Positions 16,127 through 59,049 of a stretch of DNA of 64,000 nt are shown piece after piece. Each line of letters begins with the position of its first letter. Within the stretch, counting starts at the first letter, position 1. This stretch comes from Candidatus Latescibacterota bacterium (lineage in GTDB: Bacteria; Latescibacterota; CBDEFO01), in NCBI GenBank assembly GCA_965248755.1, contig OZ252149.1:4344680-4408679 (forward strand), read 5' to 3'. Made by a program: the position numbers and the translations under genes. Under the pieces are notes generated by a model. That model was given only the letters and a program-made list of their open reading frames with translations, had not been told where the DNA came from and did not search any database.

Positions 16127-17173
16127 CTATCGCATCAGGACCATTTTTCTTGTCTTCGCAAAGTCCCACGAGTCCCACGCTGTGATCCTGTAGTAATAAA
16201 CCCCGCTTGCGACCTCCTTCTTGTTGTCGTCCAGTCCATCCCAACCAGTATAATGGCTGCCCGCTTCCATATAGGAATTTACAAGAGTCCTTACCTTTTG
16301 CCCACCGGTGTTGTATATAGATAAGGTTACCATTCCTGCAGATGGGAGATCATAATAGATAGTAGTCAGTGGATTGAAGGGATTTGGATAGTTTTGAAAG
16401 AGCCGGTGAACATCAGGCACAGCTGAGGCTCTATCACCTATAAGCTCTGTCTTTACGGGAATCAGTCCCTCGTTCAACTGGACTTTGCGCAGCCATATGT
16501 AAGCGGGGACAGGTAGTCCTGGAAGCAGGGATTTTACTTTGATAAAGGCAATTTCTCCCTTTCCCCTATATGGCTCAGACCCTGCAAAGGCTATCTTGAG
16601 CGTGCTTTCATCGACTTTGCTTGCAAACAATCCCACCCGGGTCAAATCCGACGGCAATGCGCCTGATATCTCAAGCTCTGTCGGATCAAAGGATATTTCG
16701 ACATGTCCGGCTATTACCTTTTCCATATTGTCGATAAGTACAGGAACTTTGAACTCTCCGCTTTCAAGCTTCTGAGCATTACCCATACGCACTGTCCGAA
16801 CTATAAATGATGACTGCAATCGGGGATCGTCCCCGACCGGAAGCGTTCTAATCTTTCCCTCTACAAATTGCAGTATCAGTGCGGCGTCGTACGAAGTTAT
16901 CTGCTCCTGAACCGAACCGGAATTCCCGCTTACATTTGAAACTTTGGGTGTTAATCCGGCGTAGTCCGTGCTGTCCTTTTGTCCCACCGCAAATTGGAGT
17001 ATCAAGGAGGCATCAAACGCCGATATTTCCCCATTTCCACTTACGTCAAAGTTCGTCTCTGCGTCAGCATTGTCCAGAAAGGAAAAGGATAAGATGGCGA
17101 ATAAGAAAACGATTCTTAACGACCTTTCACATTTTACCATCGCACAGCCTTTCGCTCTCAAATGCCTCTTCAT
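16127..17173 (-). CDS. Secreted protein: signal peptide + dockerin-like pair + cohesin-like domain + T9SS C-terminal sorting domain
   Basis: DVSGNGEISAFDASLILQFAVG and ITSYDAALILQFVEG (dockerin EF-hand segments). FKVPVLIDNMEKVIAGHVEISFDPTELEI (cohesin-like). NYPNPFNPLTTIYYDLP...SGVYYYRI...RKMVLMR (type-A CTD). Confidence 0.75.
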   Translation of the reverse strand: MKRHLRAKGCAMVKCERSLRIVFLFAILSFSFLDNADAETNFDVSGNGEISAFDASLILQFAVGQKDSTDYAGLTPKVSNVSGNSGSVQEQITSYDAALILQFVEGKIRTLPVGDDPRLQSSFIVRTVRMGNAQKLESGEFKVPVLIDNMEKVIAGHVEISFDPTELEISGALPSDLTRVGLFASKVDESTLKIAFAGSEPYRGKGEIAFIKVKSLLPGLPVPAYIWLRKVQLNEGLIPVKTELIGDRASAVPDVHRLFQNYPNPFNPLTTIYYDLPSAGMVTLSIYNTGGQKVRTLVNSYMEAGSHYTGWDGLDDNKKEVASGVYYYRITAWDSWDFAKTRKMVLMR

Positions 17174-18288: not shown

Positions 18289-19356
18289 GTGTTGTCGAAG
18301 CGGAACAATTCCAGAGAAGATATAAAGAGATTGACAGAGACCGTCAAATGCGGTGGTTGAGCGTCTAAACTGAGCCCGGCGGAGCTGGAGCAAGTTATAT
18401 CGCAACTGCCAACGATGGAGGATGCGAATCTTTTGGTGGGGTTTAATACGGCAGATGACGCTGGGGTTTACAGGGTGGGAGACGACTTGGCGTTGATCCA
18501 GACAGTGGACTTCTTTACGCCAATAGTGGACGATCCTTTTCTCTTCGGTCAGATAGCCGCCGCCAACGCCCTCTCTGATGTCTACGCTATGGGAGGAAAA
18601 CCAATAACAGCTCTGAATGTGATCTGCTTCCCCAATACGACCTTCGACCTGGAGGTTCTCTCGGAGATTATGAAAGGCGGCATGTCCAAAGTAAGCGAAG
18701 CTGGCGCCGTTATCCTGGGGGGACACACTGTTCGAGATGAGGAGCTAAAATACGGTCTTTCGGTCACTGGTGTCGTCTCTCCCGATAAGGTAGTTACCAA
18801 CGCCTCTGCACGACCGGACGACAAGCTTATACTCACCAAACCCCTGGGCACAGGTCTCCTTGCTGACGCCCTCAAAGACGGCAAACTGACCCAAGACGAT
18901 ATATCCGAGGCTTGTCAAGTAATGGCAACCCTGAACGCCTCTGCGTCCGATAGGATGGTCGAATTCGGAGCCACTTCCTGCACGGACATAACCGGATACG
19001 GTCTTTTGGGACACGCAGCGGAGATGGCGCAGGCAAGCGAAGTCGGAATGATACTCTACGCATCGAATATACCTTATTTTGATAAGGCATTACGGCTTGC
19101 CTCTGCTCCTCTTACCGGGGGCTCCCGTGATAACCAAAATTTCGCATCCAAGGTCGTAGACATAGACGCATCTGTCCCCCCGGCTATTATCAACCTTATG
19201 TTCAACGCCCAGACCTCCGGCGGACTCCTTATCTCCATATCCCCCGAGACAGCAGAAGACCTTGTGTCAGCACTTATAAAGGACAAAGTTCCCTCCGCCT
19301 CAATAATTGGTGAGGTAACAGATGAAAAAAAGGTACGTATAACTGTCCTTCCCTAA
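18289..19356 (+). CDS. selD: Selenide, water dikinase (selenophosphate synthetase), selenocysteine-containing; in-frame UGA at 18358-18360
   Basis: The track ORF (18415-19356) lacks the catalytic N-terminus. The same frame upstream reads RLTETVKCGG-TGA-ASKLSPAELEQVI, which aligns with E. coli [20 protein letters not shown] (U at Cys17). AGGAG lies 8 nt before the GTG at 18289. Confidence 0.85.
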
Positions 19357-27355: not shown

Positions 27356-27565
27356 AATTATCCTTCGTTCATCCGTAAGATAAAAACCTACACCTGCTAA
27401 GATAAACTCTATCCAGAGGGGAGTCAAGGGCTTTTTGCCCGTCCTGTTCAGTCTTAAGGATTAATTATGCTTGACAGTCTTATGCTTGGTTAATTATCTT
27501 GGATGGTGAACCTATGTCGAATAGAATTTGGCAATGCTGAAAGGTTGAAAGAGAGGAGGAGTGTG

Positions 27566-28921
27566 ATGAGCTTCCGCGACTGGGCCAAAAATGCTTTCTT
27601 GCTGATAGCAGTTTTGTCGATCGCTATTCCTCACCTCTCCTACAGCCGGACGATCACCGTATCCCCCATCGGGGTAGCCGATTATCCGACCATCGGTCAG
27701 GCTATCGCGACAGCTTTGTCGGGGGATACCATTCGGGTCAGCCCCGCGACGTATCGGGAGTCGGTGGGGTTGAAGTCGGGTGTGGTGGTGTTGGGAAATG
27801 GCTACGAGAATACCCGCATTGAGATAGACATTCTGGCCAATCCTGTGTACGCTGTGAACGTCTCGCATGCCAAGATCTCAGGCTTTACCCTCGCCTACAC
27901 GGGCACCGAGATACCAGCTACGGTCTATGTCCAGTCCTCCCGGGTGACGATCTCCAATTGCCGGATTCTCAACACTACAGTTTCGGGGGTCTACGCTATA
28001 GAGGAATCCGAAGTGACTGTAGAAGGCTGTATTGTGGAACAGAACGAAGGCCACGGCGTTGTCACATCTGGCGGTTCGAAGGGGAGTATTCGGGACAGTC
28101 AGATCCAGGACAACCAGGTAGATGGGCTTTTTTTCGGCGGAGCGTCGTTTGGAGAGGTAACGGGGAACACTGTGACCGGGAATGGAGCCAACGGGGTTGA
28201 GGTGATTGGAGCGGGACCAGTGACGATGTCCGGCAACGTGACCTCGGGCAACACCTATGCTGGTATCCGAGCAGCAGACACCTCGCAAGTGGACGTTCGG
28301 GGGAACACGACAGTGGAGAATGGGACGTATGGGATATTGGTTCAGTCAGGGAGCGTGGCCTCCATCGTGGACAATATTGTGGTCTGGAATTCGATTGGTG
28401 GTATCTACACGAAGGGCGGAGAGGCAGGGGATGGGATCATCTCGGAGATCGGTTACAACGATGTCTGGGACAACGGCGTCACGGTTCAAATGACCGGCAA
28501 CTTATCCAACTACCAGGGTTTTCAGGCGCCGGCAGAGGACATGTCCGTCAACCCTTTCTTTTTAGACGATGCGGCAGGGGACTATCGCCTGCGGTCCAAT
28601 TCGACCCTGATCGGTGCGGGAAGGGACGGAGGGACCGTCGGCGCACTGGGCATTGTGTCCCCTGAAGAGGAAAGTGCCGTCCCTTCACCGGTCTTCATCC
28701 GGGCGTTTCCTGACACTGCCTACTGGACGCTGCTGCAGGGACAGGCCTGGCTGAGCGTGGATATCTACATCATGGTGGGGAACCTCGTCAGCTTTATACC
28801 GGACGAAGTGGAAGTGAGGTTCTTCGGGGAGGACGGGGGTATCGTCGTGTCAGAACGCATCCCGGCCTCGGACTTCAGAGCGACATCTGCTGTAATCGAG
28901 ACGGATGTGACGAACCTTTAG
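27566..28921 (+). CDS. Secreted right-handed parallel beta-helix (PbH1) repeat protein; likely the N-terminal part of one gene continuing to 31588
   Basis: AGGAGGA SD plus ATG at 27566. Signal peptide MSFRDWAKNAFLLIAVLSIAIPHLSYS. Repeated G.V...N.I..N beta-helix turns. Ends at a TAG in frame with the next ORF. Confidence 0.7.
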   Translation: MSFRDWAKNAFLLIAVLSIAIPHLSYSRTITVSPIGVADYPTIGQAIATALSGDTIRVSPATYRESVGLKSGVVVLGNGYENTRIEIDILANPVYAVNVSHAKISGFTLAYTGTEIPATVYVQSSRVTISNCRILNTTVSGVYAIEESEVTVEGCIVEQNEGHGVVTSGGSKGSIRDSQIQDNQVDGLFFGGASFGEVTGNTVTGNGANGVEVIGAGPVTMSGNVTSGNTYAGIRAADTSQVDVRGNTTVENGTYGILVQSGSVASIVDNIVVWNSIGGIYTKGGEAGDGIISEIGYNDVWDNGVTVQMTGNLSNYQGFQAPAEDMSVNPFFLDDAAGDYRLRSNSTLIGAGRDGGTVGALGIVSPEEESAVPSPVFIRAFPDTAYWTLLQGQAWLSVDIYIMVGNLVSFIPDEVEVRFFGEDGGIVVSERIPASDFRATSAVIETDVTNL

Positions 28922-31588
28922 ATGGTGTGGGATGCGACGCTGACAGAGCTGAAATCCGCAACGCCACTGGAGGTTCCCCCAGGAGGACGGGACGTTTTTC
29001 TTCCCAAAGAGCACCCCTTTCCCCAGGCCGATCTCCCCGTGAGAGCTGAGTACGTAGTCCGGGGGCAGGAGGGGGGCAGAACCGTAGAACTGGTGCGCGA
29101 AGTCGTCCCTGAAATCTACCGTCAGCGCACTGACCTTCGCTTCCCCATGCGCGGGGGTGGATGGCAGGTCATCGCTGGTCCCCCTCAGGACAATCACCGG
29201 CACCGTGCGACAACTTTCCGGGGCAGAACCCTGGCGATGCCCGGCCGCTACGCGATGGACATCTGGAGGAGCTACCGGGGGCTTTATCGGACCGATGGAC
29301 TCACCAAGGAGGACTACTGGGGGTACGGGGCTCCCATGTATGCACCGGGGGTCGGCCGTGTCGTCTTTGTGAGGAAGGACGCAGATGAGCCGGCCTTCGG
29401 AGAGGAGATTCCCGGGGGTGAGTCCAACACCGTCGTGATCGACCACCAGAACGGCGAGTACAGCTTTATGCTCCATCTTAAGAAGGGCTCGGTAGCGGTA
29501 GAGGTCGGACAGTGGGTGGAACAAGGCGATCTCATAGGGGCGCTGGGCAATTCGTTCGACAGGTGGAACGTCCCCCACCTCCACTTTGAGGTCAGGGACA
29601 GCTACATTTGGCCGGGTGAGGGCCTTCCGGTGGCCTTCACCGGAGGAAGGATCCTGGGCACGGAGATTCAGGATGGCATGCTATTCAGTGGGGCTTTCTT
29701 TGAGGAGGAATCCCTCGGGCCGGTTCTCCACGTGGCGGCAGACGGGAGTGCGGACTACAGGACCATTAGTGACGCGATGGACGTGGCTGTCATGGGTGAT
29801 ACAGTGCGGGTAGCTCCGGGCACATATCGGGAGACTGTATGGTTGAAGTCCGGGGTGGTGGTGCTGGGAAGTGGCTACGAAGGTACCCGCATAGAGATAG
29901 ACATTCTGGCCAACCCTGTATACGCCGTGAACGTCTCAGATGCCAAGATCTCCGGCTTTACCCTCGCCTACACCGGCACGGAGTCACCGGTCACGGTCTT
30001 TGTCGACTCCTCCCAGGTGACGGTCGCCAACTGCCGGATTACCAACACCACTGTTTCAGGGGTCTACGCCGTGAATGGATCTAAAGTGACCGTCGAAGGG
30101 TGTCTTGTGGAACAGAATAAGGGTTTTGGTATTGCCATATATGGTGGTTCGGAGGGGTATATCTGGGACAATCAGATCCGGGATAATCGGTTGAATGGGG
30201 TTGTCTATGCCGAAGCGTCCTTTGGGCAGCTGATGGGGAACACTATCACCGGGAATAAGGCCAACGGACTGGTGATCGCTGGTGCCGGAGCGGTGACCGT
30301 TACCGGCAACGTGCTTGCGCGAAACAGCTGGGCGGGCATCATAAGTCTTACGGAGTCCGAATTGGAGGTTCGGGGAAACACGATCGTGGAGAACGGGACG
30401 TATGGGATTTTGGTTCTGTCGAGGAGTGTGGCTTCCATCGTAGACAATATCGCGGCCAGCAATCTGATCGGGATTTCCATACAGGGCGGCGAAGAGGGAG
30501 ATGGCGTCGTCTCAGAGATCGGGTACAATGATGTATGGAATAACCGGGGTGGAAACTACTTAGGGTTTACTTCTACCCCTGAGTTGGATCTCTCCGTAGA
30601 CCCACGATTCGTCAATGCGGAGGCCGGCGATTACCACTTATGGCGCGACTCTCCTCTACTTGGAGCCGGACAAGCCGGGGGTACAATCGGAACGTTCGGT
30701 ATTCTGGAGGCCAGACGTCTGCCGGGAGACGTGACGGACAATGGTGTGGTAACAGCCTACGATGCTGTCCATATTCTCCAACACACAGTGGGACTGCTGA
30801 CGTTGACCGGTGAGGATTCTGTAGTTGCAGATGTGAGTGGCGACACCACCATCTCTGCGTACGATGCTTCACTGGTGCTGCAATATGTAGTCGGACAAAT
30901 CTCTCGTCTCCCTGTGAGGGGAGGACAGACAACAAAGGTAGCATATGCCACTCGGACGGTCCGGATGGGTGAGATGAAGGCGTTGTCGAATGGACGGATG
31001 TGTCTGCCCATCTTGATAGACGAGATGGACGCTGTAGTCGCTGGAGAGATGACGCTGTCCATTGAGGAAAATGGAGGAAATGTGACAGTCAGAAGGACGC
31101 ACTTGACTCCTGGCTATCTGCTTGCCAGCAACGTCCAGAACGGTAGTATCAGAGCATCGTTTGCCGGAGCCGAGTTGAGTACCGGCTCAGGGCCGGTGCT
31201 GGAGGTGGTGTCGGACGCAGGACTCCTTAGTACCCTGAGGCTGGAGCGTGTGTCGCTGAACGAAGGGAGGATACCAGTCCGGATCGAGGGAGTCAAATCT
31301 GAGACACCCACAGTGTATCGGCTCAGTCAAAACTATCCAAATCCGTTCAACCCCCATACGGTGATCTATTACGAGCTTCCTGTTCAAAGCCATGTCGATA
31401 TATCTGTCTATAATATGATAGGACAGAAGGTTGCAATACTGTTGGATAAAGGGATAGAAGTAGGTACCTACTCTTTAATCTGGGATGGCAAAGATGACAA
31501 CGGAGAGGACCTTGCCAGCGGAGTCTATCTGTATCGGATAGAAGCGGATGGATTTGTGCAGACAAGGAAGCTGGTCTTGATGCGTTAG
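28922..31588 (+). CDS. M23-like peptidase domain + second beta-helix domain + dockerin-like pair + cohesin-like domain + T9SS CTD (no signal peptide of its own)
   Basis: DHQNGEYSFMLHL...PHLHFEV (M23 HxH; the upstream HxxxD motif is not obvious). The beta-helix is paralogous to 27.7-28.6 kb. GDVTDNGVVTAYDAVHILQHTVG, ADVSGDTTISAYDASLVLQYVVG, NYPNPFNPHTVIYYELP...RKLVLMR. Confidence 0.75.
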   Translation: MVWDATLTELKSATPLEVPPGGRDVFLPKEHPFPQADLPVRAEYVVRGQEGGRTVELVREVVPEIYRQRTDLRFPMRGGGWQVIAGPPQDNHRHRATTFRGRTLAMPGRYAMDIWRSYRGLYRTDGLTKEDYWGYGAPMYAPGVGRVVFVRKDADEPAFGEEIPGGESNTVVIDHQNGEYSFMLHLKKGSVAVEVGQWVEQGDLIGALGNSFDRWNVPHLHFEVRDSYIWPGEGLPVAFTGGRILGTEIQDGMLFSGAFFEEESLGPVLHVAADGSADYRTISDAMDVAVMGDTVRVAPGTYRETVWLKSGVVVLGSGYEGTRIEIDILANPVYAVNVSDAKISGFTLAYTGTESPVTVFVDSSQVTVANCRITNTTVSGVYAVNGSKVTVEGCLVEQNKGFGIAIYGGSEGYIWDNQIRDNRLNGVVYAEASFGQLMGNTITGNKANGLVIAGAGAVTVTGNVLARNSWAGIISLTESELEVRGNTIVENGTYGILVLSRSVASIVDNIAASNLIGISIQGGEEGDGVVSEIGYNDVWNNRGGNYLGFTSTPELDLSVDPRFVNAEAGDYHLWRDSPLLGAGQAGGTIGTFGILEARRLPGDVTDNGVVTAYDAVHILQHTVGLLTLTGEDSVVADVSGDTTISAYDASLVLQYVVGQISRLPVRGGQTTKVAYATRTVRMGEMKALSNGRMCLPILIDEMDAVVAGEMTLSIEENGGNVTVRRTHLTPGYLLASNVQNGSIRASFAGAELSTGSGPVLEVVSDAGLLSTLRLERVSLNEGRIPVRIEGVKSETPTVYRLSQNYPNPFNPHTVIYYELPVQSHVDISVYNMIGQKVAILLDKGIEVGTYSLIWDGKDDNGEDLASGVYLYRIEADGFVQTRKLVLMR

Positions 31589-31621: not shown

Positions 31622-32482
31622 ATGAGCGGCATAGTCTCTACTTTCAAGAGAGGAGAAAACAAAATTGTAGTTTACAATTTGGATTGTATCGAGGGGATGA
31701 GAAGCAAGATAGAGAACGGTTCTGTAGATGTCGTTGTAACTTCCCCTCCGTATAACCTGGGCATCAGATATGAAAAGTACGATGATGCTGTGCCGAGGGA
31801 GAAATATCTAAGATGGATCGGAATCTGGGCTGGCGTCGTAAAGGAAATTCTCAGTGATAAAGGGTCTTTGTTCCTGAATATCGGATCGAAGCCCACCGAC
31901 CCCTGTGTGCCCTTTGAAGTCCTATCCCAGATGAGAAAGCACTTTTTCCTGCAAAATGTGGTTCACTGGATAAAATCTATCGCTATACAAAAGGAGGACG
32001 TCGGTGACTACCCGGGAATCAGCAGCAATGTGTCTATCGGACACTATAAGCCTCTAAATAGCAATAGATTCATCAACGACTGCCACGAGTACATCTTTCA
32101 CCTGACCAAAAATGGCGATGTAGAATTAGATAGATTATCTATAGGAGTTGAGTACCAGGACAAGTCTAATATCGGGCGGTGGGACTCTGCGAAGGAAGAC
32201 AGAAGGTGCAGAGGCAACACCTGGTTTGTGCCCTATAAGACGATAAGGGATAGAGCAAAGCAGAGGCCTCATCCGGCTACGTTCCCCGTAAGGATCCCTA
32301 AAATGTGTATTATGTTGCATGGGGTTGAGCGGACTCGCATTGTGGTCGATCCTTTTGTCGGGATCGGTAATTCTGCCCTTGCGTGCATAGAACTCGGTGT
32401 TGACTTTGTGGGATTTGAAATCGACCAGGCGTATTATGAAGAAACATGCATGGCGATGGAGAATGTGACAGAGAACGCTTAA
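31622..32482 (+). CDS. DNA methyltransferase, N4/N6 beta-class (motif IV SPPY before motif I)
   Basis: DVVVTSPPYNLG near the N-terminus and VDPFVGIGNSALA near the C-terminus. Confidence 0.85.
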   Translation: MSGIVSTFKRGENKIVVYNLDCIEGMRSKIENGSVDVVVTSPPYNLGIRYEKYDDAVPREKYLRWIGIWAGVVKEILSDKGSLFLNIGSKPTDPCVPFEVLSQMRKHFFLQNVVHWIKSIAIQKEDVGDYPGISSNVSIGHYKPLNSNRFINDCHEYIFHLTKNGDVELDRLSIGVEYQDKSNIGRWDSAKEDRRCRGNTWFVPYKTIRDRAKQRPHPATFPVRIPKMCIMLHGVERTRIVVDPFVGIGNSALACIELGVDFVGFEIDQAYYEETCMAMENVTENA

Positions 32483-37805: not shown

Positions 37806-38531
37806 TCATCTGGGAACCCAACTGGCGAAGTAGGTCGGCGACCACTTGCGCGTCAGTTGAAAAACGCGCTCCCTTACACAGCCGTGGTCTGGGGAAACCT
37901 CGATGTCGATATACGCCTCGGCCCCCGCTACAGTGGGAAATTCCGCCAGCCAGACGCGGTGCCAGGCAGCTTGGGGGGCCATCAGCTTAAAACACTCCAG
38001 CCGCATCAAACTATGCTTGTGGGTTACAGAGCGCATGCCCTCGATGTAGTCATCTTCCACCCGCTTTTCTCCGGAGCCGTGTGTCGGCTCCCCACGTTCG
38101 AAGAGCACTACAACCACACTGCCAGAGTCCACCCTTAGTTCTGGAACTTGGCGGGGATCAACGTCTTCCGGTACGATCACCGAAGGTGCAGCGTTCGCTA
38201 CCCAGTCGGTGCAAAACTCCGGACGACAGTTACGCGCCAGGTAGTATTCGTAGTACCCATAGCGCCCATAGGGCGGCGCCATCTCTGCCTCAATCCATGC
38301 CTCGGCGCCCGCTAACGCCGGAAACTCAATGGTCCAGAAGCGCTCCCAAGTGCTTTGCGGCGCCATCAAACGGAACCCTTCGAGGCGCTGCAGCCCGTAT
38401 TTGTGCGCAATTCCCAGCATCAGATCCACGTGCTCCTGCTGATAAGCTTTCTGTTCACGGGGCGACAAGCTGTGCCAGCTCAATAGCCGGCCACCTTTGT
38501 AGAGCACGACAATAGATTCGTCAGCTTCCAT
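37806..38531 (-). CDS. Hypothetical protein made of two tandem ~110-aa homologous domains
   Basis: Both halves share ...H..L.RLE.F.LMAPQ..W.R.W..EFP...GAEA.I..E..P... Confidence 0.6.
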   Translation of the reverse strand: MEADESIVVLYKGGRLLSWHSLSPREQKAYQQEHVDLMLGIAHKYGLQRLEGFRLMAPQSTWERFWTIEFPALAGAEAWIEAEMAPPYGRYGYYEYYLARNCRPEFCTDWVANAAPSVIVPEDVDPRQVPELRVDSGSVVVVLFERGEPTHGSGEKRVEDDYIEGMRSVTHKHSLMRLECFKLMAPQAAWHRVWLAEFPTVAGAEAYIDIEVSPDHGCVRERVFQLTRKWSPTYFASWVPR

Positions 38532-38879
38532 CTAATTTATCCCACTGTGGTTATTCTGTCGACGGATGATCTTTGAGCAGAAAAATCGGTTATAGAGTCA
38601 ATTAGGATGAAGTTAATCCCTATACACTGTGGATCTGACAGCAAGACACTCTTGCCTGCGGATTCCAGTGACTTTAGCCTGTAATCGAGACGGATTCCGA
38701 ATGGCTAGTCAGACCATTCGAACTGATGAAAGCAGGCGAAAGAGCCAGCCACTATGCAAATCCGTTCTTGGCGGCGAGGTCGAATTTGGAGTTCGTGCCT
38801 TCACAGTGGGAATGATCAGGTATTTGTTTATCGGTCCGGCAGATGCATTTAGCGTCGGCTGGCGCTGGGGTAGCCACGT

Positions 38880-39808
38880 CTACATGACGATTTCGTGCAT
38901 ATCGCCGATCCACTTGATCCCGGTGGGTCCGGGTACTTCGCATGCTCCCCCCATGGCAAAAATGCGGTCGCCCACCGTCGCCGCATCCAGCCACGCCTTC
39001 CCCTTCGGCAACGGCGCTTCGCGGATCCAGCTGTCCGCGTCGATGTCGTAGATTTCAGTCGTGTTGGTGTAGTTTTTGATGGGGTCGTTGTCGTCCTCGT
39101 TGTTGTGGCCACCGCAGGTGAAAATCTTGTTGTCGCCCATCAGGGTTATGCCCATGGATTCCCTTCTTGTGAACATCGGGGCCAATTTTTCCCACTTGAC
39201 CACAGTCGGATCCAGCACGTGTGCGTCGAGCAGGTAGGACTCCTCCCGGGGTTGACCCGTTCGACAACCACCGAAGACGTAGACCCTGTCATCGACACCG
39301 ATGGCATTGGGGGCCTGGAGACGGTAGGGAAAAGCTGGGCCCGACTCCCACTGGCCGCTCTGCGGATCGTAGACATCTACAGCCTCCAGTTGGGTGCCGG
39401 TTCACTCCATGGTGTTGCCGCCGATGATGTAGACCTTTCCACGGCAGGAAGCCAACGTCACTCCGGCCCTGGGACCACTGGGGGCAGGGGCCAGAACAGA
39501 CCAGGTCTGCGTCTCTAGATCCAGCACCTCCAGGGCATCCTGCACGTTCCATCCGTCACCGATGCGCTCTATTTCCTCCTGTGTTCGGATAGTTTTGCCG
39601 CAACCCACATAAATCTTGCCATCCAGCAGGGTGGCTCCGCGCTCTAGCTGTCTGTGGCAACGTCGTAGATTCCTACCACGTGAATCGTCTGAGTGGTGGC
39701 GCCGGAGATGGCGTAGATCTTCTCGCCCACCTCTATGGACTGCAAATCGTGCCGCGGCGTCGGCATGGACGCCCGTTGGATCCAGTTTCCCATTATTCTT
39801 TCCTCCAT
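38880..39808 (-). pseudogene. Kelch-repeat beta-propeller gene with one frameshift (~39645) and one in-frame TGA (39402-39404)
   Basis: The pieces join as MEERIMGNWIQRASMPTPRHDLQSIEVGEKIYAISG... / ...LLDGKIYVGCG...KVYIIGGNTME-TGA-TGTQLEAVDVYDPQSGQWE...RVYVFGG... continuing into ORF 38880-39218. Confidence 0.6.
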
Positions 39809-40021
39809 GCCGGCGCGTCACATGATCCGAACCACGCCCAGTCGAGCTTCGTGGCCGGCATCTTGAGTTCGTATTCACTGACATTCCCCATATGAAATTC
39901 ATGAGGCGCTAAATTTCGATAGACCCTTGTTTGTAAGTGAATATAACCGCTTTTATATTCTTGAACAATCACTTTTTTCAATCAAAATAGCATTTCCCTC
40001 TGAATTAGCACTTTCTGTGTG

Positions 40022-41168: not shown

Positions 41169-42047
41169 ATGCAAAGTAATGTCAAGCTGGATATAGAAGA
41201 CGAAGAAATTGGTTTTATGAACGTCGACCAGACCGACTTCAGTTCGTTCACCCTGGGTGAGCGTATTCGACACGTTGAGGTAGAGGGCTACGTCGTTCTA
41301 CCCGATACACTCGACAGGCGGCAGATTGCAAGACTCAAGTCCGAACTTGCCGATATTCCAATGCAACATAAGGATTATAGCGTAGCTCAGACTGTGTCTG
41401 AGGATCCTCCACAGTGGCAGAGTCGCGCCGTTGCAGAGCTGATCGGGCATCCGCCGGTTATCCAGTTTCTCAGGGAACTGATGGGCACGGATATTGTGTT
41501 TACACGAGGAGTATTTCAACGCACGAATCACGGCTCCCCAGGGATCTCTATGCACACAGACGGACAGCCCTTTGGGTCGTCAATCTTTGACTACGAGGGC
41601 AGTTCGCCCCGGCTGCTGCGGGTCCTCTATTACCTCGACGACCTCATACCTGAACGGGCGCCCTTTCGGCTCGTGCCTCGTTCGCACCTGTCCTTCCATG
41701 CAGAAGCGAACCCGTACCTCCGATACAAGTCGCACCCGGAGGAGATCACCCTTTGCCTGAAGGCAGGATCAGCCCTTATCATCCCTAAAGACCTCTTCCA
41801 CGGGACACATCCGAACAACGACACCTCCTCCAGGTCGATGATTCAGTTCGGCTACCGGCCAGGCTGGTCCGGGCCGATCCAACCTATGGAGGAGTGGGAC
41901 CCGGAGTTAGTGGCTGCAGCACCCGAGCAGGCCAAGCCGTTCTTGCAGAGTCTCAACAAGACGGGCGGTGTGTGGAAGCTGGAGAATAAGCCAAAGGGCA
42001 TGGCGTCAAACGCTCCCGGGATCGACCCGCATCGCTGGGGAGACTGA
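41169..42047 (+). CDS. Phytanoyl-CoA dioxygenase (PhyH) family Fe(II)/2-oxoglutarate oxygenase
   Basis: MHTDGQ (HxD) and a distal LFHGTHPN. PhyH-like length. Confidence 0.75.
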   Translation: MQSNVKLDIEDEEIGFMNVDQTDFSSFTLGERIRHVEVEGYVVLPDTLDRRQIARLKSELADIPMQHKDYSVAQTVSEDPPQWQSRAVAELIGHPPVIQFLRELMGTDIVFTRGVFQRTNHGSPGISMHTDGQPFGSSIFDYEGSSPRLLRVLYYLDDLIPERAPFRLVPRSHLSFHAEANPYLRYKSHPEEITLCLKAGSALIIPKDLFHGTHPNNDTSSRSMIQFGYRPGWSGPIQPMEEWDPELVAAAPEQAKPFLQSLNKTGGVWKLENKPKGMASNAPGIDPHRWGD

Positions 42048-42131
42048 GGGCATGAGGTGTAAGCCACTTCGGAGAACAAAAACTCAAATTCTCAGTATCC
42101 TGAGCGCTTTACGCTTCAAGGAGAATATCGT

Positions 42132-43748: not shown

Positions 43749-43959
43749 CTCAATGAACCACGTAAGAACGCTCGAATCTTCTGAGTTGGCCCATTCGAAT
43801 CTTACGCAAGACCGGATATGACTATCCAGGGCAAATATTGTGGAGATGACTTATAGAGATCCAAAATAGTAGGCAGCATATACGGAAAACTTACCTAAGC
43901 TAGCTTGCTGTCTAATTATATTCGAGAAGTTCTGTCAATCCATTTAGTTTCATGGAGAT

Positions 43960-45534: not shown

Positions 45535-45602
45535 TCGTCCAGTTTACCTCGTCGAACTATCCAACACGACAGGCAGCAGGAACCCCGGAAGGGCCTTCTT
45601 TC

Positions 45603-46596
45603 TCATGAACTTCGCTCTGATCTCATCTCCTCGATGAAACGCACGGCATTCCCTGAGAAGTTATCCTCGATCTCCTCTTGAGTCAATCCTAAAATGTTCG
45701 CCACCTGCTGCTCCAGGCGCAACTGCTCGTAAATCACAAACGTCGGTGTGGTATCACAGTGAGGAAGTTCGGACCCCCCCCGAAATACTCCCAGGCTCGG
45801 CCAGGGGTAATCTACTTGCAGCGAGCACACCCGGCCACGATGTTGTTCGAGACGAACATCACCTGTTTTCAATCCTCTTGTTTCATCAGCAGATAGTACG
45901 AGTATATCTCGTTCACGGCCGAAGCGACGTACCTGATATTCGGCATGTCTCTTGAGTACGTGGATCGACTCCTCCGTAATGAAGGCGTTGAAGGACCGGG
46001 CACAGTGCGCCAGGATCCATTGGGCCTTCGGGTACTCTTTGGTGTAGTACTGCAGGTCTTCAAGTTTTCGGGATCAGCAGCCCCGGTTTTCTTGGAAAGA
46101 TGCATGGTGATCGCCAGCCCCATGTCGTGCGCTACCTCGATGAAGGACTCGTGCAGGAAGTCCTGAATCCGATAATTGATCGGATCGGGGGCAAAGAAAC
46201 GATAGGGCTTTAATCCAAAGAAGTTGTACTTTCTTACTTGAGCGGCGACGTAGTCAGGCGTTATATCCGGTGTGACCATCATGTTGACCTCGCATTGAGT
46301 ATCCTCCGCCATCTGTGCCGCCATCCAATTGTTGTGGCCCTCTAGATCCATTCCCGGAATCGGGCTCCCCAGGACCAGGTAGTGCATCTCGCGATCGGGA
46401 TATAGTTTTGCCGCCCAGGCCAGGTACTCCTGATAAGCGATCTCCATCGCATACCTGGGCGAGGGCCTTTTAGTGCTCCTGTATGTGCCTCGGCACTGAT
46501 GTGGGTGTGCATGTCGTAGATCACAGGGGGCACAAAGTTCTCCAATTCCTTTTCCCAGATATCGCGGTCCAAGCTTCGGTAATCAATAGTTCCCAT
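45603..46596 (-). pseudogene. Amidohydrolase-2-family (metal-dependent hydrolase) gene broken by at least three frameshifts
   Basis: The N-terminal DMHTHI metal motif (46342-46596), the middle piece (45869-46447) and the C-terminal NAVRFIEE (45603-45872) lie in different frames. Alternate-frame pieces (EDLQYYTKEYPKAQWILAHCARSFN; DMPNIRYVASAVNE) restore a typical sequence. Confidence 0.6.
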
Positions 46597-53674: not shown

Positions 53675-56600
53675 ATGAGAACAATGCTCATATTTCCGGC
53701 TCTGCTCCTTGTAATACTATCCTTCATAATTGATGTTCAAGCACAACAAAACAGTAAGTACGTTGAACATCAAGTGATTGTTAAGATGAGTGGAAAGATT
53801 CAAGCAGCGGATATCGTAACTATGAGAGAGAACCTTAATGCTTCAGTGCTCAAGAAATTTTGGATCGTTAACGCTGAACTTTGGGAAACACCCGGAATTA
53901 CCGTGGAAGATGCTATCTATCAATATCGTAATGACCCTCGTATCGAATATATTGAACCGAACTATCGTGTCTGGGCTGTTCAAACTATCCCGAACGATAC
54001 CAGCTTTTCTCAGCTTTGGGGATTGCACAATATCGGGCAGATAGGCGGAACAGTCGATGCAGACATCGATGCTGTTGAGGCCTGGGACATCCAAACCGGA
54101 GATTCCGTGTTGGTGGGCGTAATAGATACAGGCGTAGACTGGACGCACGAAGACCTTGCGGATAATATCTGGACTAATCCGGGAGAGATCCCAGATAACG
54201 GTATTGATGATGATGGAAACGGTTACATCGATGACGTCAGAGGATGGGACTTTGTAAACAAGGATAATGATCCTATGGACGACAATGGTCACGGAACTCA
54301 CGTAGCCGGGACCATTGCTGCTGTCGGAAATAATGGAATAGGCGTTGTTGGAGTCTCTTGGTCGGCACAAATAATGCCGCTTAAGTTTTTGGAAGCCGAT
54401 GGTTCCGGAATTACCTCCGATGCGATTCTGGCAATAGAATATGCGATGATTATGAGGTCAAAATTAACTAACAATAGTTGGGGTAGCAGTGGATTCTCCC
54501 AAGCTTTATATGATGTGATAGCTGTTTCAGGGAACGCTAACATCCTCTTCATAGCCGCCGCAGGGAATGGAGGTGATGATAACATCGGAGATGATAATGA
54601 TCAGGTTCCCCACTATCCCTCCAACTACGATTTGGACAATATCATTTCCGTTGCGTCTACAGATCACAACGATGTAAGATCTCCCTTCTCCAACTTCGGC
54701 CTTACCTCAGTCGATCTAGGAGCTCCGAGCTCAAGTATTCTCAGCACGGTGCCAGGAGATACTTACAGCTTTCTCATCGGGACCTCTATGGCTACACCAC
54801 ATGTGTCCGGCGCTGCCGCTTTGATTTGGGCTCAATATCCAGATCTGACGAATCTTCAGGTCAAGAATAGGATTATGAGCACTGTAGATCCGATCCCTGC
54901 GTTAGGTGGCAGATCGGTTACAGGTGGAAGACTGAATGCCTTTGGTGCATTAGCAGGACCGGATAGTATCCCACCGGATACCGTGACCGATTTAGCCGCA
55001 GCAGACCCGACCTCAAATTCTATAACGCTTACATGGACAGCCAGCGGCGATGACAGCACCTTCGGCACAGCAGCGTATTATGATATCCGATATGTAACCT
55101 CTCCGATCGATTTCGGGAATTTTGATTTGGCTACTGAAGTTTTGAACGAACCGGATCCTCAAGAGGCTGGTTCTACGGAGACGTTCACAACGGGTGGACT
55201 AGGTTTCAATACGACCTACTATTTTGCCCTGAAAGTTTTTGATGAGCAGGGGAATGGGTCAGAAGTCTCTAACTCGCCATCGGCTGCCACGTTGGGCATA
55301 CCCGATATTTCAGTTACACCGGATTCTCTGAGCGATAGTCTGCTCACAGCAAGCGCATCTACTCAAATCCTGACTATATACAATGTAGGAGAGGGAACGT
55401 TAGACTTTACTTTTCCGGATTTTGCTTCTGCCGCTTTATTAAACACGCCAGGGATTGAAAGGAACGACGTCTCAAGTCGTTTTGAGCATTTAGAACTCGA
55501 AAAGGGGCTGACAGATCTGCAAGAGGGGAATCCCCTCCTTTTAGGAGCAGGAGGCCCAGATGGCTTTGGCTATCGGTGGATCGATAGCGATGAACCGGGT
55601 GGACCCATCTTTAACTGGATTGAAATATCGAAAGTCGGGACATCGATATTGTTACTTGATGATGATGTTGAGGAAGTCGCTCTGCCTTTTACATTTCCGT
55701 TTTATGGAGAAGCAAAGACAACCCTCAAGATCTCCTCGAATGGCTATCTTGCGTTTAGTGCAGATGGGACAGATTTCTCAAATGATCCTATTCCAGATCC
55801 TGTTGATCCCAATGACTTAATTGCGCCATTTTGGGACGATTTGAATCCGAGCGCTGACGACACTATCTTTTACTATCACGACACTGATCAAAATCGATTT
55901 ATTGTGCAGTACACTGGGCTTCCTCACTATGATGTTGGAGGGCCCTACACTTTCCAAGTTATCTTGTACCCTGATGGCAGTATGCTCTTTCAGTATCTGG
56001 ATATGCTCCCTCCTTTGGATAGTGCCACGATAGGCGTCGAAAACCTAGATGCTTCCGATGGCTTACAAGTAGCTTTTAACACAGACTTTATCCATGATAG
56101 TCTCGCCGTTAGTATCTCAGCTATTCCTCAATGGTTAAGCCTTAATCCTGTATCTGGCACTCTTCTACCGGGTTCATCGGCGGACATTGCTGTAAACTTC
56201 GATGCAACAGGTTTGAACGGCGGCAATTATGATGCACATATTGTGATTGCAAGCAACGATCCGGATGAGCCACAGGTACGAGTTCCTGCGCATCTGCATG
56301 TGACAGGTGTGCCGGATATTGCTGTTTCCCCGGATACTTTGGATTATGGCTTTGCCCTCATTGGAGCATCTGTCGACGATACGCTGATTGTCTCGAATAT
56401 AGGGACCGATACATTGACGGTGAGCAGCATTGTATCGGACAATCCAAATTATACCGTAGATTTAACCGGTCTTAGCTTATCTCCCGGAGAAAGTCAGGAG
56501 GCGTTGGTAAGTTTTGCGCCGGTAGATACAGGAATAAGTAGCGGGACATTGACGATAACAAGTGATGATCCGGATGCACCCATGGTGACGGTGACGCTAA

Positions 56601-58747
56601 CTGGCGAGGGATTAATTGCACCGAATATTTCTGTTTCTCCAGATTCGTTAAGTGCAGATTTGCGAACTGGAGAGACATCGGAACAGTTATTGACAATCAA
56701 GAACACCGGTGGCAGTGATTTGACTTTTGATATTTCGATTGAAGGATTGGCAGCTGCTTCAGTGTTGGTAGAAGTTAGTTCCAGGAGTTTCGAGCGAAGA
56801 TTAACTATTCAATTGCAGGATAATCCACAAAAGGAATGGAGCGACTATCGGCAAATTCGTCAGGTAAAGATGGCGATGAAGAAGCTACATCGCAAGGAAG
56901 ATGCTCTGAGAACGTCGCTTCCTGTTGTGATAGAGGATCCTGTTGGTGATGGCGGCGTTGTTGACGTAACCGTTCTTCGGGGCGCCAGTACATCGAACAA
57001 ACTTCAGATCGAGATGCAATTTAATACAGAAATTGATCCATTCAATTTTGGCGGTTTTCTTTCACTTGATATAGATCAAAACCCCAGTACAGGTCTTCCT
57101 CCAACTTTCGGGTTCGCTGGACAAGATATCGGTGCAGATTATGAATTTCGGTTTTTCACAGTTAGCAGCGGTTTCGTGGGACTTTATGATGTCATATCAG
57201 GTTTTGTAGGTGCCTATCCTGTTGAAGTTGGGATACATACCTTGCGTTTTTCTGCACCGCTGTCTGATATTGGCAATGATGATGGAAACATGGATGTCAC
57301 GGGAGCTATAGGAGACGCATTTGGCTCTACGGATTGGTTCCCAGATGCAGGTCATGGAACTATCAATGGCGTCAGTTGGTTGTCAGTAACGCCCACCTTG
57401 GGCACCGTGCCAACAGGTAGCAGCGTGGACATTGCAATAATCTTTGATACCACGGACTTGGACATCGGTGATTACAACGCCAACATCGTGGTGAGAAGCA
57501 ACGATCCGGATGAGCCAGAAGTTCGAGTTCCTGCACATGTGCATGTAAGGGAAAATAGCTCACCCGGATCCTTTACCCGATTACTCCCTGCAGATAGCAG
57601 TCTTGTCCTGCCTCAAGCCGTAATCTTCCGCTGGACAGCGGCTCCCGATGTGGATATGATTATCTATTCGCTGTCCATCAGCGTAAATGGGATCGATATG
57701 ACCTTCACCTTGAAAGACACTACACTGACGCTTGATTTCCAGACGTTCGGCTTGCCGAACGATCAGCTTCCGTTGACATGGTCTGTGCTCGCCTCCGACG
57801 GCATTTCAACCTCAGCCCCTACCAACAGGCAAGGACACTTCACGCTGGATAACCTCTTCCTGTTTGGCGATCCTTCGGGCAACATTTCAATCAGCGCTTT
57901 TGATGCCACATTGGTGCTGCGACACTCCGTGGGACTTTTGACGCTGGCAGGCAGTGCCGCGCTGGCCTCGGATGTCTCCGGAAATGGCCTGATCAGTGCC
58001 TTTGATGCCTCCTTGATCCTGCAATACGTCGTCGGGATCATCGACTGTTTTCCTGTCGCTCAGGGCTGTGGGGCACCACTGGCTAAGAGGACAAGCGTTA
58101 GAGGTACACTCGGCTGGTCTGATGTCAGATCGGTCGATCTTTCTGAACTTGTTAGTCTGCCTATCCTCTGGAGCGGAGAAGTAGGAAGGGTTACTTCAGC
58201 GCAGTTCACCGTCCAGATTGACCCGACGCAGGTGACGGTTGAAAAAGTAGTCGCTCATGTACCTCAAGACTGGCAGTTGGTCTATAGCTTGGGGGACAGT
58301 GTGCTGTATGTAGCGATGGCCGGGGTGACCCCAATCTCGGCAGGCGATCTGGCAACTATCACACTGCAGGTGCACGATCCAGTAGCACAGGTAACACTGC
58401 ACGGTGTGGGGTTCGTGAATGAAAACGCTGTACAGGAGCTCGGCGCGGTTGCGATCTCACAGGCGCCGACAGAATATGTCTTAGAGCAGAACTATCCCAA
58501 TCCGTTCAACCCTACCACAGAGATTATGTATCAGCTGCCAGGGGCTTCGGAGGTACACCTGGTCATCTACGACCTATTGGGTCAAAAGGTGCGGACTCTG
58601 GTGAACACTCAACAGGCGGCGGGGTTCTATAGAGTCCAGTGGGACGGACAAAATGACGCGGGTGTGGATGTCGCATCGGGCGTCTATGTGCATCGAATCT
58701 GGACGAAGAACTATCAGCAGACGAGGAAGATGTTGCTGTTGAAATAA
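53675..58747 (+). CDS. Giant secreted subtilisin-like (S8) serine protease with Ig-like/Fn3-like arrays, dockerin-like pair, cohesin-like domain and T9SS CTD
   Basis: Signal peptide. Catalytic triad contexts VGVIDTGVDWTHEDL, HGTHVAGTIAA and GTSMATPHVSGAAAL. Repeated ...SNDPDEP.VRVPAH.HV modules. GDPSGNISISAFDATLVLRHSVG, SDVSGNGLISAFDASLILQYVVG, NYPNPFNPTTEIMYQLP...RKMLLLK. Confidence 0.9.
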   Translation: MRTMLIFPALLLVILSFIIDVQAQQNSKYVEHQVIVKMSGKIQAADIVTMRENLNASVLKKFWIVNAELWETPGITVEDAIYQYRNDPRIEYIEPNYRVWAVQTIPNDTSFSQLWGLHNIGQIGGTVDADIDAVEAWDIQTGDSVLVGVIDTGVDWTHEDLADNIWTNPGEIPDNGIDDDGNGYIDDVRGWDFVNKDNDPMDDNGHGTHVAGTIAAVGNNGIGVVGVSWSAQIMPLKFLEADGSGITSDAILAIEYAMIMRSKLTNNSWGSSGFSQALYDVIAVSGNANILFIAAAGNGGDDNIGDDNDQVPHYPSNYDLDNIISVASTDHNDVRSPFSNFGLTSVDLGAPSSSILSTVPGDTYSFLIGTSMATPHVSGAAALIWAQYPDLTNLQVKNRIMSTVDPIPALGGRSVTGGRLNAFGALAGPDSIPPDTVTDLAAADPTSNSITLTWTASGDDSTFGTAAYYDIRYVTSPIDFGNFDLATEVLNEPDPQEAGSTETFTTGGLGFNTTYYFALKVFDEQGNGSEVSNSPSAATLGIPDISVTPDSLSDSLLTASASTQILTIYNVGEGTLDFTFPDFASAALLNTPGIERNDVSSRFEHLELEKGLTDLQEGNPLLLGAGGPDGFGYRWIDSDEPGGPIFNWIEISKVGTSILLLDDDVEEVALPFTFPFYGEAKTTLKISSNGYLAFSADGTDFSNDPIPDPVDPNDLIAPFWDDLNPSADDTIFYYHDTDQNRFIVQYTGLPHYDVGGPYTFQVILYPDGSMLFQYLDMLPPLDSATIGVENLDASDGLQVAFNTDFIHDSLAVSISAIPQWLSLNPVSGTLLPGSSADIAVNFDATGLNGGNYDAHIVIASNDPDEPQVRVPAHLHVTGVPDIAVSPDTLDYGFALIGASVDDTLIVSNIGTDTLTVSSIVSDNPNYTVDLTGLSLSPGESQEALVSFAPVDTGISSGTLTITSDDPDAPMVTVTLTGEGLIAPNISVSPDSLSADLRTGETSEQLLTIKNTGGSDLTFDISIEGLAAASVLVEVSSRSFERRLTIQLQDNPQKEWSDYRQIRQVKMAMKKLHRKEDALRTSLPVVIEDPVGDGGVVDVTVLRGASTSNKLQIEMQFNTEIDPFNFGGFLSLDIDQNPSTGLPPTFGFAGQDIGADYEFRFFTVSSGFVGLYDVISGFVGAYPVEVGIHTLRFSAPLSDIGNDDGNMDVTGAIGDAFGSTDWFPDAGHGTINGVSWLSVTPTLGTVPTGSSVDIAIIFDTTDLDIGDYNANIVVRSNDPDEPEVRVPAHVHVRENSSPGSFTRLLPADSSLVLPQAVIFRWTAAPDVDMIIYSLSISVNGIDMTFTLKDTTLTLDFQTFGLPNDQLPLTWSVLASDGISTSAPTNRQGHFTLDNLFLFGDPSGNISISAFDATLVLRHSVGLLTLAGSAALASDVSGNGLISAFDASLILQYVVGIIDCFPVAQGCGAPLAKRTSVRGTLGWSDVRSVDLSELVSLPILWSGEVGRVTSAQFTVQIDPTQVTVEKVVAHVPQDWQLVYSLGDSVLYVAMAGVTPISAGDLATITLQVHDPVAQVTLHGVGFVNENAVQELGAVAISQAPTEYVLEQNYPNPFNPTTEIMYQLPGASEVHLVIYDLLGQKVRTLVNTQQAAGFYRVQWDGQNDAGVDVASGVYVHRIWTKNYQQTRKMLLLK

Positions 58748-58956: not shown

Positions 58957-59049
58957 TCTGGAAGTTAAGAGAGCTGAGTAACCATTGAAATTGCAGTTTA
59001 GATAATTGTGCTATTTAGAGATCCTTAAGGGAGAAAAAATTCGTTGATA

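Follow-up and report, generated by a model that had tools for sequence, protein, structure and literature searches.

The 64-kb window analysed here (64,000 nucleotides of contig OZ252149.1 of a Candidatus Latescibacterota bacterium) encodes three proteins that end in the same cassette, made up of a dockerin, a cohesin and a type-A C-terminal sorting domain (CTD) belonging to secretion system type IX (T9SS). Structure prediction suggests that the dockerin sits immobile against the neighbouring cohesin, so that both modules would form one rigid unit and a matched pair. We give about even chances to the reading that the cassette is a self-complementary pair, closed by default and able to link neighbours on the cell surface. 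The three bearers are a cargo-less protein of 348 amino acids (aa), a protein with M23 peptidase and beta-helix domains and a protease of the S8 family, and their modules lie as follows.

16127..17173, minus strand: cargo-less protein with signal peptide, dockerin, cohesin and T9SS CTD, 348 aa from the first ATG.
17060..17140, minus strand: putative Sec signal peptide of the cargo-less protein, residues 12-38, MVKCERSLRIVFLFAILSFSFLDNADA, read from the sequence.
16838..17056, minus strand: its dockerin, residues 40-112, two F-hand repeats with a degenerate second loop (hidden Markov model (HMM), profile and structural model).
16439..16804, minus strand: its cohesin, residues 124-245, a nine-strand beta sandwich (match to 2XDH and Foldseek).
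16130..16405, minus strand: its T9SS type-A CTD, residues 257-348, FlgD-Ig-like subtype (TIGR04183 and FlgD_ig).
28922..31588, plus strand: M23 and right-handed beta-helix protein with the cassette at its end and no signal peptide of its own (Pfam).
30704..30913, plus strand: dockerin of the M23 protein, residues 595-664 (Dockerin_1, 31.5 bits; model compared with 4UYP_B).
30944..31285, plus strand: cohesin of the M23 protein, residues 675-788 (custom HMM; didomain model; 2XDH, template-modelling (TM) score 0.62).
31316..31585, plus strand: T9SS type-A CTD of the M23 protein (TIGR04183, 43.3 bits).
53675..58747, plus strand: S8 subtilase of 1690 aa that also has a signal peptide, one or more Ig-like modules, FN3 and BACON-like modules, and the cassette at its end (Pfam).
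57839..58054, plus strand: dockerin of the S8 protein, residues 1389-1460 (Dockerin_1, 21.2 bits; custom HMM).
58097..58438, plus strand: cohesin of the S8 protein, residues 1475-1588 (Pfam Cohesin, 16.8 bits; custom HMM, 57.5 bits).
58475..58744, plus strand: T9SS type-A CTD of the S8 protein (TIGR04183, 40.5 bits).

When stop-to-stop segments from all six frames were scanned with custom module HMMs, exactly three open reading frames (ORFs) of the window gave matches, each of them with all three modules, and no multi-cohesin ORF, stand-alone cohesin or stand-alone dockerin was found within the 64 kb. The three cassettes share 38-43% identity over ~300 aa (small protein versus M23 protein 43%, versus S8 protein 38%). 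An earlier note on this DNA, made from the sequence alone, had described the 348-aa ORF as signal peptide, dockerin, cohesin and T9SS CTD only, and had placed the same module order at the end of the two larger proteins. Both descriptions held: every peptide string quoted there is present in the translation, and the HMM matches and the identity between cassettes agree with the shared order. The cassette genes are dispersed among housekeeping genes (accC, trpS, rpsA, acs, mpl, groEL and gmd). A fourth paralogue (P0125, 530 aa), consisting of a signal peptide, an Ig-like module and the dockerin-cohesin-CTD ending, is encoded on the same contig, outside the window.

Cut-offs were 22.9 bits for Dockerin_1 (PF00404), 24.1 for Cohesin (PF00963), 23 for TIGR04183 and 27 for both FlgD_ig and Por_Secre_tail (PF18962). 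Pfam alone under-calls both modules, giving the 348-aa protein no cohesin match and a dockerin score under the cut-off. It was rejected as a module caller, and the identity of both was settled through profile searches of the Protein Data Bank (PDB) and structure prediction. Dockerin_1 reached 17.0 bits on the 348-aa protein, below cut-off and covering one repeat; 31.5 bits on the M23 protein, above cut-off and spanning profile positions 1-56 of 57; and 21.2 bits on the S8 protein, slightly under cut-off and spanning positions 2-56. A profile of the three window dockerin-cohesin segments matched the Acetivibrio cellulolyticus ScaB dockerin 4UYQ_B over its full length (E=3.5e-12), together with several further solved dockerins. 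The AlphaFold2 (AF2) model of the M23 cassette shows the dockerin fold, with a helix after each of its two F-hand Ca-loops, and Foldseek aligned this dockerin with the ScaB dockerin 4UYP_B at a TM score of 0.86 (root-mean-square deviation (rmsd) 1.3 Å, 68 columns, 38% identity). Position D12 is invariant in both repeats across 54 sequences, and the Ca-loops of the M23 and S8 dockerins are intact. In the 348-aa protein, the AF2 model places dockerin helices at residues 52-63 and 94-104, and the second Ca-loop reads NVSGNSGSVQEQITSYD, with D1 replaced by N, a 5-residue insertion and lower values of the predicted local distance difference test (pLDDT). Thus, of the two dockerin repeats claimed for this protein, the dockerin assignment is backed by the ScaB match and the second Ca-loop is atypical.

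Pfam Cohesin gave no match in the 348-aa and M23 proteins, and its best score among the three, on the S8 protein, was 16.8 bits (E=0.008), under cut-off; many homologues carry a precomputed PF00963 match. The archaeal Archaeoglobus fulgidus cohesin 2XDH was matched by the 348-aa protein in a phmmer search of the PDB (E=3.4e-6) and with the profile (E=3.5e-7). For the 348-aa protein, AF2 gave a model with a pLDDT of 83.6, in which DSSP assigned nine strands to the cohesin, and this module superimposes on 2XDH with a TM score of 0.67 and an rmsd of 3.6 Å. Comparison of the cohesin models with 2XDH, 1G1K, 2VN5, 1OHZ and 2CCL gave a Foldseek probability of 1.00 and TM scores of 0.6-0.67. The type-A CTD is known as a 7-strand Ig-like sandwich (PMC11285876). 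All three window tails pass TIGR04183 (25.6-28.1 bits for the 348-aa protein, 43.3 for the M23 protein and 40.5 for the S8 protein), and the tail of the 348-aa protein scores 40.3 bits on FlgD_ig, over cut-off. Por_Secre_tail stayed below cut-off on the window proteins (21-25 bits, with 21.0 for the 348-aa protein). An N-terminal Sec signal peptide was read in the 348-aa and S8 proteins. Taken together, these results identify the cassette modules of all three window proteins as dockerin, cohesin and T9SS type-A CTD. Of the checks that the earlier note had proposed, the profile searches gave a divided answer, TIGR04183 being passed by the three proteins, Dockerin_1 by the M23 protein only and Cohesin by none, while AF2 and Foldseek backed both the dockerin fold (TM 0.86) and the cohesin fold (TM 0.6-0.67).

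The smallest bearer shows the cassette in its barest form. The 16127..17173 ORF lies on the minus strand and translates into 348 aa, its real start being probably Met12 (ATG at 17140; MVKCERS..., 337 aa), because orthologues from three other metagenome assemblies, which are intact and 96% identical, begin there and are 337 aa long. As read from the sequence, the putative signal peptide has a K/R n-region, a hydrophobic core and an A-x-A site, and AF2 pLDDT is <50 across residues 1-36. The mature junction is predicted as MVKCERSLRIVFLFAILSFSFLDNADA|ETNF..., and the dockerin starts 4-5 residues past the predicted cleavage site. Since nothing intervenes between signal peptide and cassette, the protein is cargo-less, in agreement with its earlier description as enzyme-free. 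A selD-like selenophosphate synthetase gene (AIRS/AIRS_C; 18415-19356, plus strand) lies near this gene in divergent orientation; in assembly L001 (4.25x coverage) it appears as three short gene calls, which shows that frame errors are present in these long-read assemblies.

The evidence for a matched pair comes from the predicted structures and from the residues of the dockerin loops. AF2 modelled the 196-aa dockerin-cohesin segment of the M23 protein with a pLDDT of 95.8 and a predicted TM score (pTM) of 0.91, the connector of ~20 residues having pLDDT values of 89-97, and the model of the full 348-aa protein reached a pTM of 0.70 despite 36 disordered residues. Flexibly tethered independent domains would not reach such values, which argues for a fixed position of the dockerin on its cohesin in the models. 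We then considered loop positions 10-11 and 17-18, which determine the specificity of dockerins in clostridia. In both repeats, the cassette dockerins carry A-F/Y at 10-11 and L-Q at 17-18, and these residues are near-identical in the three paralogues and in the family consensus. Because the recognition positions are nearly constant, no specificity code is apparent, and any dockerin of the family should fit any family cohesin.

The cassette belongs to a large family. A first homologue search gave 3044 matches, many of them with precomputed PF00404, PF00963 and PF18962/PF13860 matches, and homologues named from Latescibacteria, Calditrichaeota, Poribacteria and Zixibacteria. The dockerin-cohesin-CTD ending was found with the custom module HMMs in 88 of the 125 proteins collected up to this point, among which the median gap was 13 aa from dockerin to cohesin and 14 aa from cohesin to CTD, and the CTD was always terminal. 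In a whole-protein scan of genome contigs the CTD pattern prevailed, and most of the relatives obtained were CTD-only; the host species is not one of the representatives. A profile of the dockerin-cohesin part only, with the CTD left out, was searched against 1.84 billion cluster representatives and gave 14,270 matches at E≤1e-3, 3,285 at ≤1e-10 and 160 at ≤1e-30. Among the best matches, 140 newly retrieved representatives at 50% identity included 104 with the complete ending, 319-3267 aa long and with linkers peaking at 10-15 aa; across the family, ~13 aa separate cohesin and CTD. In every family member examined, at most 3 residues follow the CTD.

Module composition varies around this core. 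A second, more divergent full-length cohesin lies ~6 aa upstream of the dockerin in 62 of these 104 bearers (cohesin-dockerin-cohesin-CTD), and a few bearers carry tandem dockerin-cohesin units. The cargo of the family comprises glycoside hydrolases (GH130, GH32 and GH43), FGE-sulfatase, beta-helix, TIG, PKD, VCBS and proprotein-convertase P domains. Proteins consisting of signal peptide and cassette recur in other lineages (P0005, P0012 and P0049/P0095), and there are also proteins with only signal peptide, cohesin and CTD, as well as proteins with cargo, dockerin and CTD that show the same dockerin signature and have no cohesin. Two loci contain neighbouring genes that, judged by their modules, look like side-by-side partner pairs: in Melioribacter sp. 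(L082, 3179-12782) a dockerin-cohesin-CTD gene is followed by a cohesin-cohesin-CTD gene, and in Balneola sp. (L009, 7079-12267) a cohesin-dockerin-CTD gene is followed by a cohesin-CTD gene. In ~1.17 Mb of fetched loci, mostly from FCB-group (Fibrobacteres, Chlorobi and Bacteroidetes) genomes, 164 of the 177 CTD-bearing ORFs had neither dockerin nor cohesin. Because most CTD-bearing ORFs do without it, the dockerin-cohesin pair is an optional add-on, unneeded for export. Poly-dockerin proteins (3-10 dockerins) were considered as possible partners and rejected: their sequences are of the low-GC type and rich in lysine, they carry membrane anchors at the N-terminus, and their dockerin signature is another one. 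In four of the dockerin-CTD proteins, Poribacteria-named and related (P0101, P0104, P0117 and P0120), a segment of ~50 residues containing LSKTIAQLEATTLNEEQRQVLEQLKRLV stands in the cohesin's place between dockerin and CTD; it appears helical by eye, and the dockerin retains the family signature.

On this basis, the following sequence of events can be proposed. The Sec signal peptide would take the protein across the inner membrane and the type-A CTD would direct its passage through the T9SS, after which the CTD would be cut off and the new C-terminus anchored at the outer membrane, as expected from the respective families. The membrane-proximal remainder would then be the self-complementary dockerin-cohesin pair, presumably Ca-dependent. 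In an isolated chain the pair would close on itself as one rigid unit. On a crowded surface the same contacts made between chains would join protease, M23/beta-helix protein and further bearers to one another, and a pure connector or cap would be provided by the cargo-less 348-aa protein. Given that the pair binds at all, we consider a closed resting state in cis evenly poised between true and false, favoured by the AF2 result, by linkers that are short and conserved and by contact residues that do not vary; functional links in trans deserve the same half-way degree of belief, because of the cargo-less connectors, the surplus cohesins and the occurrence of the same dockerin without a cohesin. 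Both states are not mutually exclusive. A broader version, which we hold only tentatively, would be a scaffoldin-free, T9SS-anchored assembly in FCB bacteria, in which each surface enzyme carries a universal dockerin-cohesin connector and cargo-less connectors link or cap the array, yielding a self-organising lattice of proteases and glycoside hydrolases at the outer membrane of Gram-negative cells. With the same tentativeness, the cohesin-dockerin-cohesin, tandem, dockerin-only and cohesin-only forms would be connector variants within this lattice.

Several observations weigh against a pair that is closed by default and links surface neighbours. The pairing is predicted from single-chain AF2 scores, and the predicted contact may lie elsewhere than on the canonical 8-3-6-5 face of the cohesin. 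Mean-field direct coupling analysis of 174 didomains (effective number of sequences 168) placed 9 of the 20 top inter-domain pairs in the strands of that face, where ~32% are expected, and this difference is not significant and was set aside as evidence; the top pairs tend towards cohesin strands 5, 6 and 8, in an alignment of 174 didomains that is too shallow. The Pfam thresholds are missed by all three cohesins and by two of the three dockerins. In the 348-aa dockerin the second Ca-loop is degenerate, and the ratio of nonsynonymous to synonymous substitution rates (dN/dS) of the cargo-less gene, 0.45, is too weak a sign of constraint to be used, being derived from 20 differences only. All trans contacts could also be out-competed by a closed pair in cis, whose local concentration is very high. 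Finally, none of the T9SS core genes (GldK/L/M/N, SprA/Sov, PorU and PorV) was found among the window ORFs scanned.

We judged the self-complementary pair and its alternatives separately, as overlapping readings, and our confidences in them do not sum to one. In one alternative, a purely structural one, the dockerin would be clamped for good on the cohesin of its own chain, making a rigid Ca-stabilised stalk without any assembly between proteins; after anchoring, the stalk would space the cargo from the outer membrane, much as gingipain RgpB has an Ig-like domain ahead of its CTD. This is possible, and we would put it clearly below an even chance together with its spacing role. The pTM of 0.91 and the ordered 20-residue connector agree with it, as do linkers that are short and conserved in length and dockerin contact positions that are almost invariant across phyla, as would be the case in a fixed internal interface; tandem dockerin-cohesin units even resemble the segments of a rod. 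Taken by itself, the closure of the pair inside a single chain in the model would point to a pedestal and not to an array. However, cargo-less proteins would then present nothing, yet they recur and stay intact, many bearers have one cohesin more than dockerins, neighbouring genes encode extra cohesins, and the same dockerin type is found in dockerin-CTD proteins without cohesin. Besides, a monomer prediction can fold an inter-chain contact into one chain. At the other extreme, the linker could be too short for the canonical contact in cis. Each dockerin would then have to bind the cohesin of another molecule, and protease, M23 protein and adaptor would form the head-to-tail daisy chains of the earlier note, or else reciprocal dimers. 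Both partners are present on every chain with short linkers between them, the cargo-less member could serve as cap or adaptor, and the autoaggregation of Ruminococcus bromii Amy4 offers a precedent. Still, the confident closed arrangement predicted by AF2 makes the cis contact appear sterically possible, and every chain is anchored by its own CTD, which restricts the geometry of chains; we consider obligate chaining unlikely.

A further alternative retains the logic of the classical cellulosome, with the cassette cohesin receiving dockerins of CTD-less secreted enzymes and the cassette dockerin plugging into a separate scaffoldin from another part of the genome, each with a distinct specificity, as in clostridia and as proposed for Ca. 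Stygibacter. Cellulosome-affiliated enzymes have been reported for Latescibacteria, and this would fit. Nevertheless, scaffoldin, stand-alone dockerin and stand-alone cohesin are all missing from the window, the recognition residues have not diversified among the three paralogues, and the poly-dockerin proteins that were retrieved look like unrelated low-GC Gram-positive sequences without the family signature, making such a hierarchy improbable. It is even less probable that the modules have no binding role or that the tail is not a T9SS signal, that is, that the sandwich is a carbohydrate-binding or spacer module and the FlgD-Ig-like tail serves another sorting route or none. Foldseek also matched CBM2-type sandwiches at TM ~0.5, the tail of the 348-aa protein fits FlgD_ig better than Pfam Por_Secre_tail, and tails of this kind are named in metagenome-assembled genomes placed in Poribacteria, Deltaproteobacteria and Brocadia, from which T9SS is not known. 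These points are outweighed by cohesins leading far ahead of carbohydrate-binding modules (CBMs) both by sequence and by fold, by all three tails passing TIGR04183 in a strictly C-terminal position, and by a host of the FCB group.

The host was placed by its GroEL, which is 79-81% identical to GroELs of Candidatus Latescibacteria/Latescibacterota, with Zixibacteria and Gemmatimonadetes next. By this affinity, the host is a Gram-negative bacterium of the FCB group and not a Firmicute. The FCB superphylum includes Latescibacteria (PMC4454575), and T9SS is reported as a possibility for several FCB phyla other than Bacteroidota (PMC11285876); for Latescibacterota, we found no paper on it. Nor was any T9SS core gene found around a relative of a paralogue, in the 21.6-kb locus L084, which comes from a related genome.

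Cohesins and dockerins carried by one polypeptide have been described before. In the amylosome of R. bromii, the cohesin of Amy4 was shown to bind the dockerin of the same protein, which was read as autoaggregation and formation of a mini-complex, and A. fulgidus and other systems are cited as also holding such pairs (PMC4611034). Amy4, in which cohesin and dockerin likewise reside on one polypeptide, is the closest analogue with experimental tests. It differs from the cassette in coming from a Gram-positive Firmicute, in having its dockerin at the C-terminus, so that the module order is not dockerin-cohesin-CTD, in being attached via the separate sortase-anchored scaffoldin Sca2 instead of a T9SS tail on each chain, and in being a single protein instead of a family-wide cassette. 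Among solved cohesins, that of A. fulgidus, 2XDH, comes nearest both in sequence (E=3.4e-6) and in fold (TM 0.62-0.67). In this archaeon, reportedly, cohesin and dockerin are joined in one polypeptide in a non-cellulolytic context and bind each other strongly, as measured by Voronov-Goldman in 2011; unlike the cassette, the archaeal protein has no T9SS tail, and its module order and surrounding domains are others. The presence of both partners on one polypeptide, pointed out in the earlier note, is thus not new, being preceded by Amy4 and A. fulgidus.

Closest in ecology and architecture is the cellulosome-like system inferred for Ca. Stygibacter (Cloacimonadota), like the window host a Gram-negative bacterium of the FCB group. 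It comprises a scaffoldin-like protein whose conserved C-terminal domain would attach the complex to the cell, with a T9SS review cited in support, and dockerins carried by an S8/S53 peptidase, by a C25 peptidase and by glycoside hydrolases (PMC8542988). There, the partners are on separate proteins, a scaffoldin-like one of 3755 aa with tandem cohesins and CTD, and enzymes with dockerins only; in contrast, each window bearer has dockerin, cohesin and CTD fused, and the window holds no scaffoldin. For Latescibacteria, extracellular cellulosome-affiliated enzymes have been reported (Farag 2017, as cited in PMC7081726). These Latescibacteria belong to the same phylum as the window host or to a neighbouring one. 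They are said, in the Farag study of 2017, to have dockerin-bearing glycoside hydrolases and separate cohesin/CBM37 scaffoldins, and no fused dockerin-cohesin-CTD. Youssef 2015 mentions neither dockerin nor cohesin. The clostridial cellulosome (C. thermocellum CipA, A. cellulolyticus ScaB/ScaC) shares with the cassette the dockerin fold, including a conserved F/L-P-V tail, and the type-I-like cohesin fold. It differs in its anchoring, by S-layer homology (SLH) domains or sortase instead of a T9SS CTD, and in its recognition pair, A-F/Y plus L-Q in cassette dockerins and S-T plus K-R in clostridial ones; moreover, the window bearers have no multi-cohesin scaffoldin, CBM or cellulases. Ordinary T9SS cargo such as Porphyromonas gingivalis RgpB follows the same order of signal peptide, cargo, beta-sandwich and type-A CTD, the difference being that here a cohesin and its dockerin, known as partners in protein-protein binding, stand before the CTD.

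Glycoside-hydrolase bearers occur elsewhere in the family; those of the window are the protease, the cargo-less protein and the M23/beta-helix protein. The window system is not a cellulosome by definition, because neither a scaffoldin nor a cellulase bearer was found in the window; a T9SS-anchored cellulosome-like array is plausible. The claim that such an array would lie outside the Firmicutes paradigm stands as regards the FCB-group host, and its novelty was overstated, given the precedents in A. fulgidus, Cloacimonadota and Latescibacteria. In the literature searched we came across no description or test of the fused dockerin-cohesin-CTD cassette, of its cohesin-dockerin-cohesin variant or of the cargo-less form, which bears out the earlier statement that the function of the fused triad has had no experimental test. 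If the contacts in trans are true, cohesin-dockerin assembly would be a general organiser of the outer-membrane exoproteome in uncultured FCB degraders (Latescibacterota, KSB1, Calditrichota, Ignavibacteriota and Balneolales) and no longer mainly a device of Gram-positive cellulosomes, and it would follow a different logic, with a universal connector on each enzyme and no central scaffoldin. If the contacts are made only in cis, the pair would be a stalk of a new kind for T9SS cargo, rigid and probably dependent on Ca, and annotation would gain, the present name being merely 'T9SS type A sorting domain-containing protein'. In that case it may also be of use in surface-display engineering.

The M23 protein requires a comment on its gene. 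Its 888-aa ORF scores 59.0 bits on Peptidase_M23 and 160.7 bits on Beta_helix, and is preceded in the same frame by a further ORF.

27503..28921, plus strand: signal-peptide beta-helix ORF, 472 aa, in frame and directly upstream of the M23 ORF.

A lone TAG codon at 28919-28921 divides the two ORFs, and joining them across it gives a 1361-aa protein with two beta-helix regions and the signal peptide included, of which the upstream ORF is possibly the N-terminal part. The TAG may be a consensus error or be read through, or the gene may be a pseudogene. Scanning JGI metagenomes for the exact pattern of the TAG junction gave nothing, none of the retrieved homologues crosses it, and sister strains have just a 485-aa C-terminal gene call for the M23 region, 90% identical. 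Given the in-frame TAG, the gene of the peptidoglycan-hydrolase-like partner named in the earlier note may be disrupted. The region contains a direct repeat with copies 2073 nt apart (27670-27969 versus 29743-30042, and 28287-28398 versus 30360-30471) and 77-81% DNA identity; it corresponds to the two beta-helix regions and thus represents a tandem duplication within or between both ORFs. The M23 domain (29192-29650) can be aligned with solved M23 peptidases at its HxH motif (PHLHFEV) and at the His before it (MLHL); the HxxxD zinc motif on the N-terminal side falls outside this alignment, and the window reads RYAMD there. The domain may be catalytically degenerate. GC-rich islands were observed at 28001-30000 (0.59), 38001-40000 (0.55) and 42001-46000 (0.54-0.55) over a background of 0.46-0.48; the first of them spans the TAG junction and the M23 region, and foreign origin or gene conversion is possible. 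Directly 3′ of the M23/cassette gene and beside this island lies an N6/N4 DNA methylase gene (31622-32482, plus strand).

The S8 protein scores 203.5 bits on Peptidase_S8 and 44.8 bits on the Fervidolysin N-prodomain. Its orthologue from a sister strain (P0388, 1176 aa) lacks window residues ~877-1217 and ends ahead of the CTD, a shortening that would reflect either length variation at the level of domains or an assembly break. Directly downstream of the S8 gene there is a gene for a TMEM260-like protein O-mannosyltransferase with TPR repeats (59044-61578, plus strand), and it is conceivable that this gene is tied to the glycosylation of secreted cargo.

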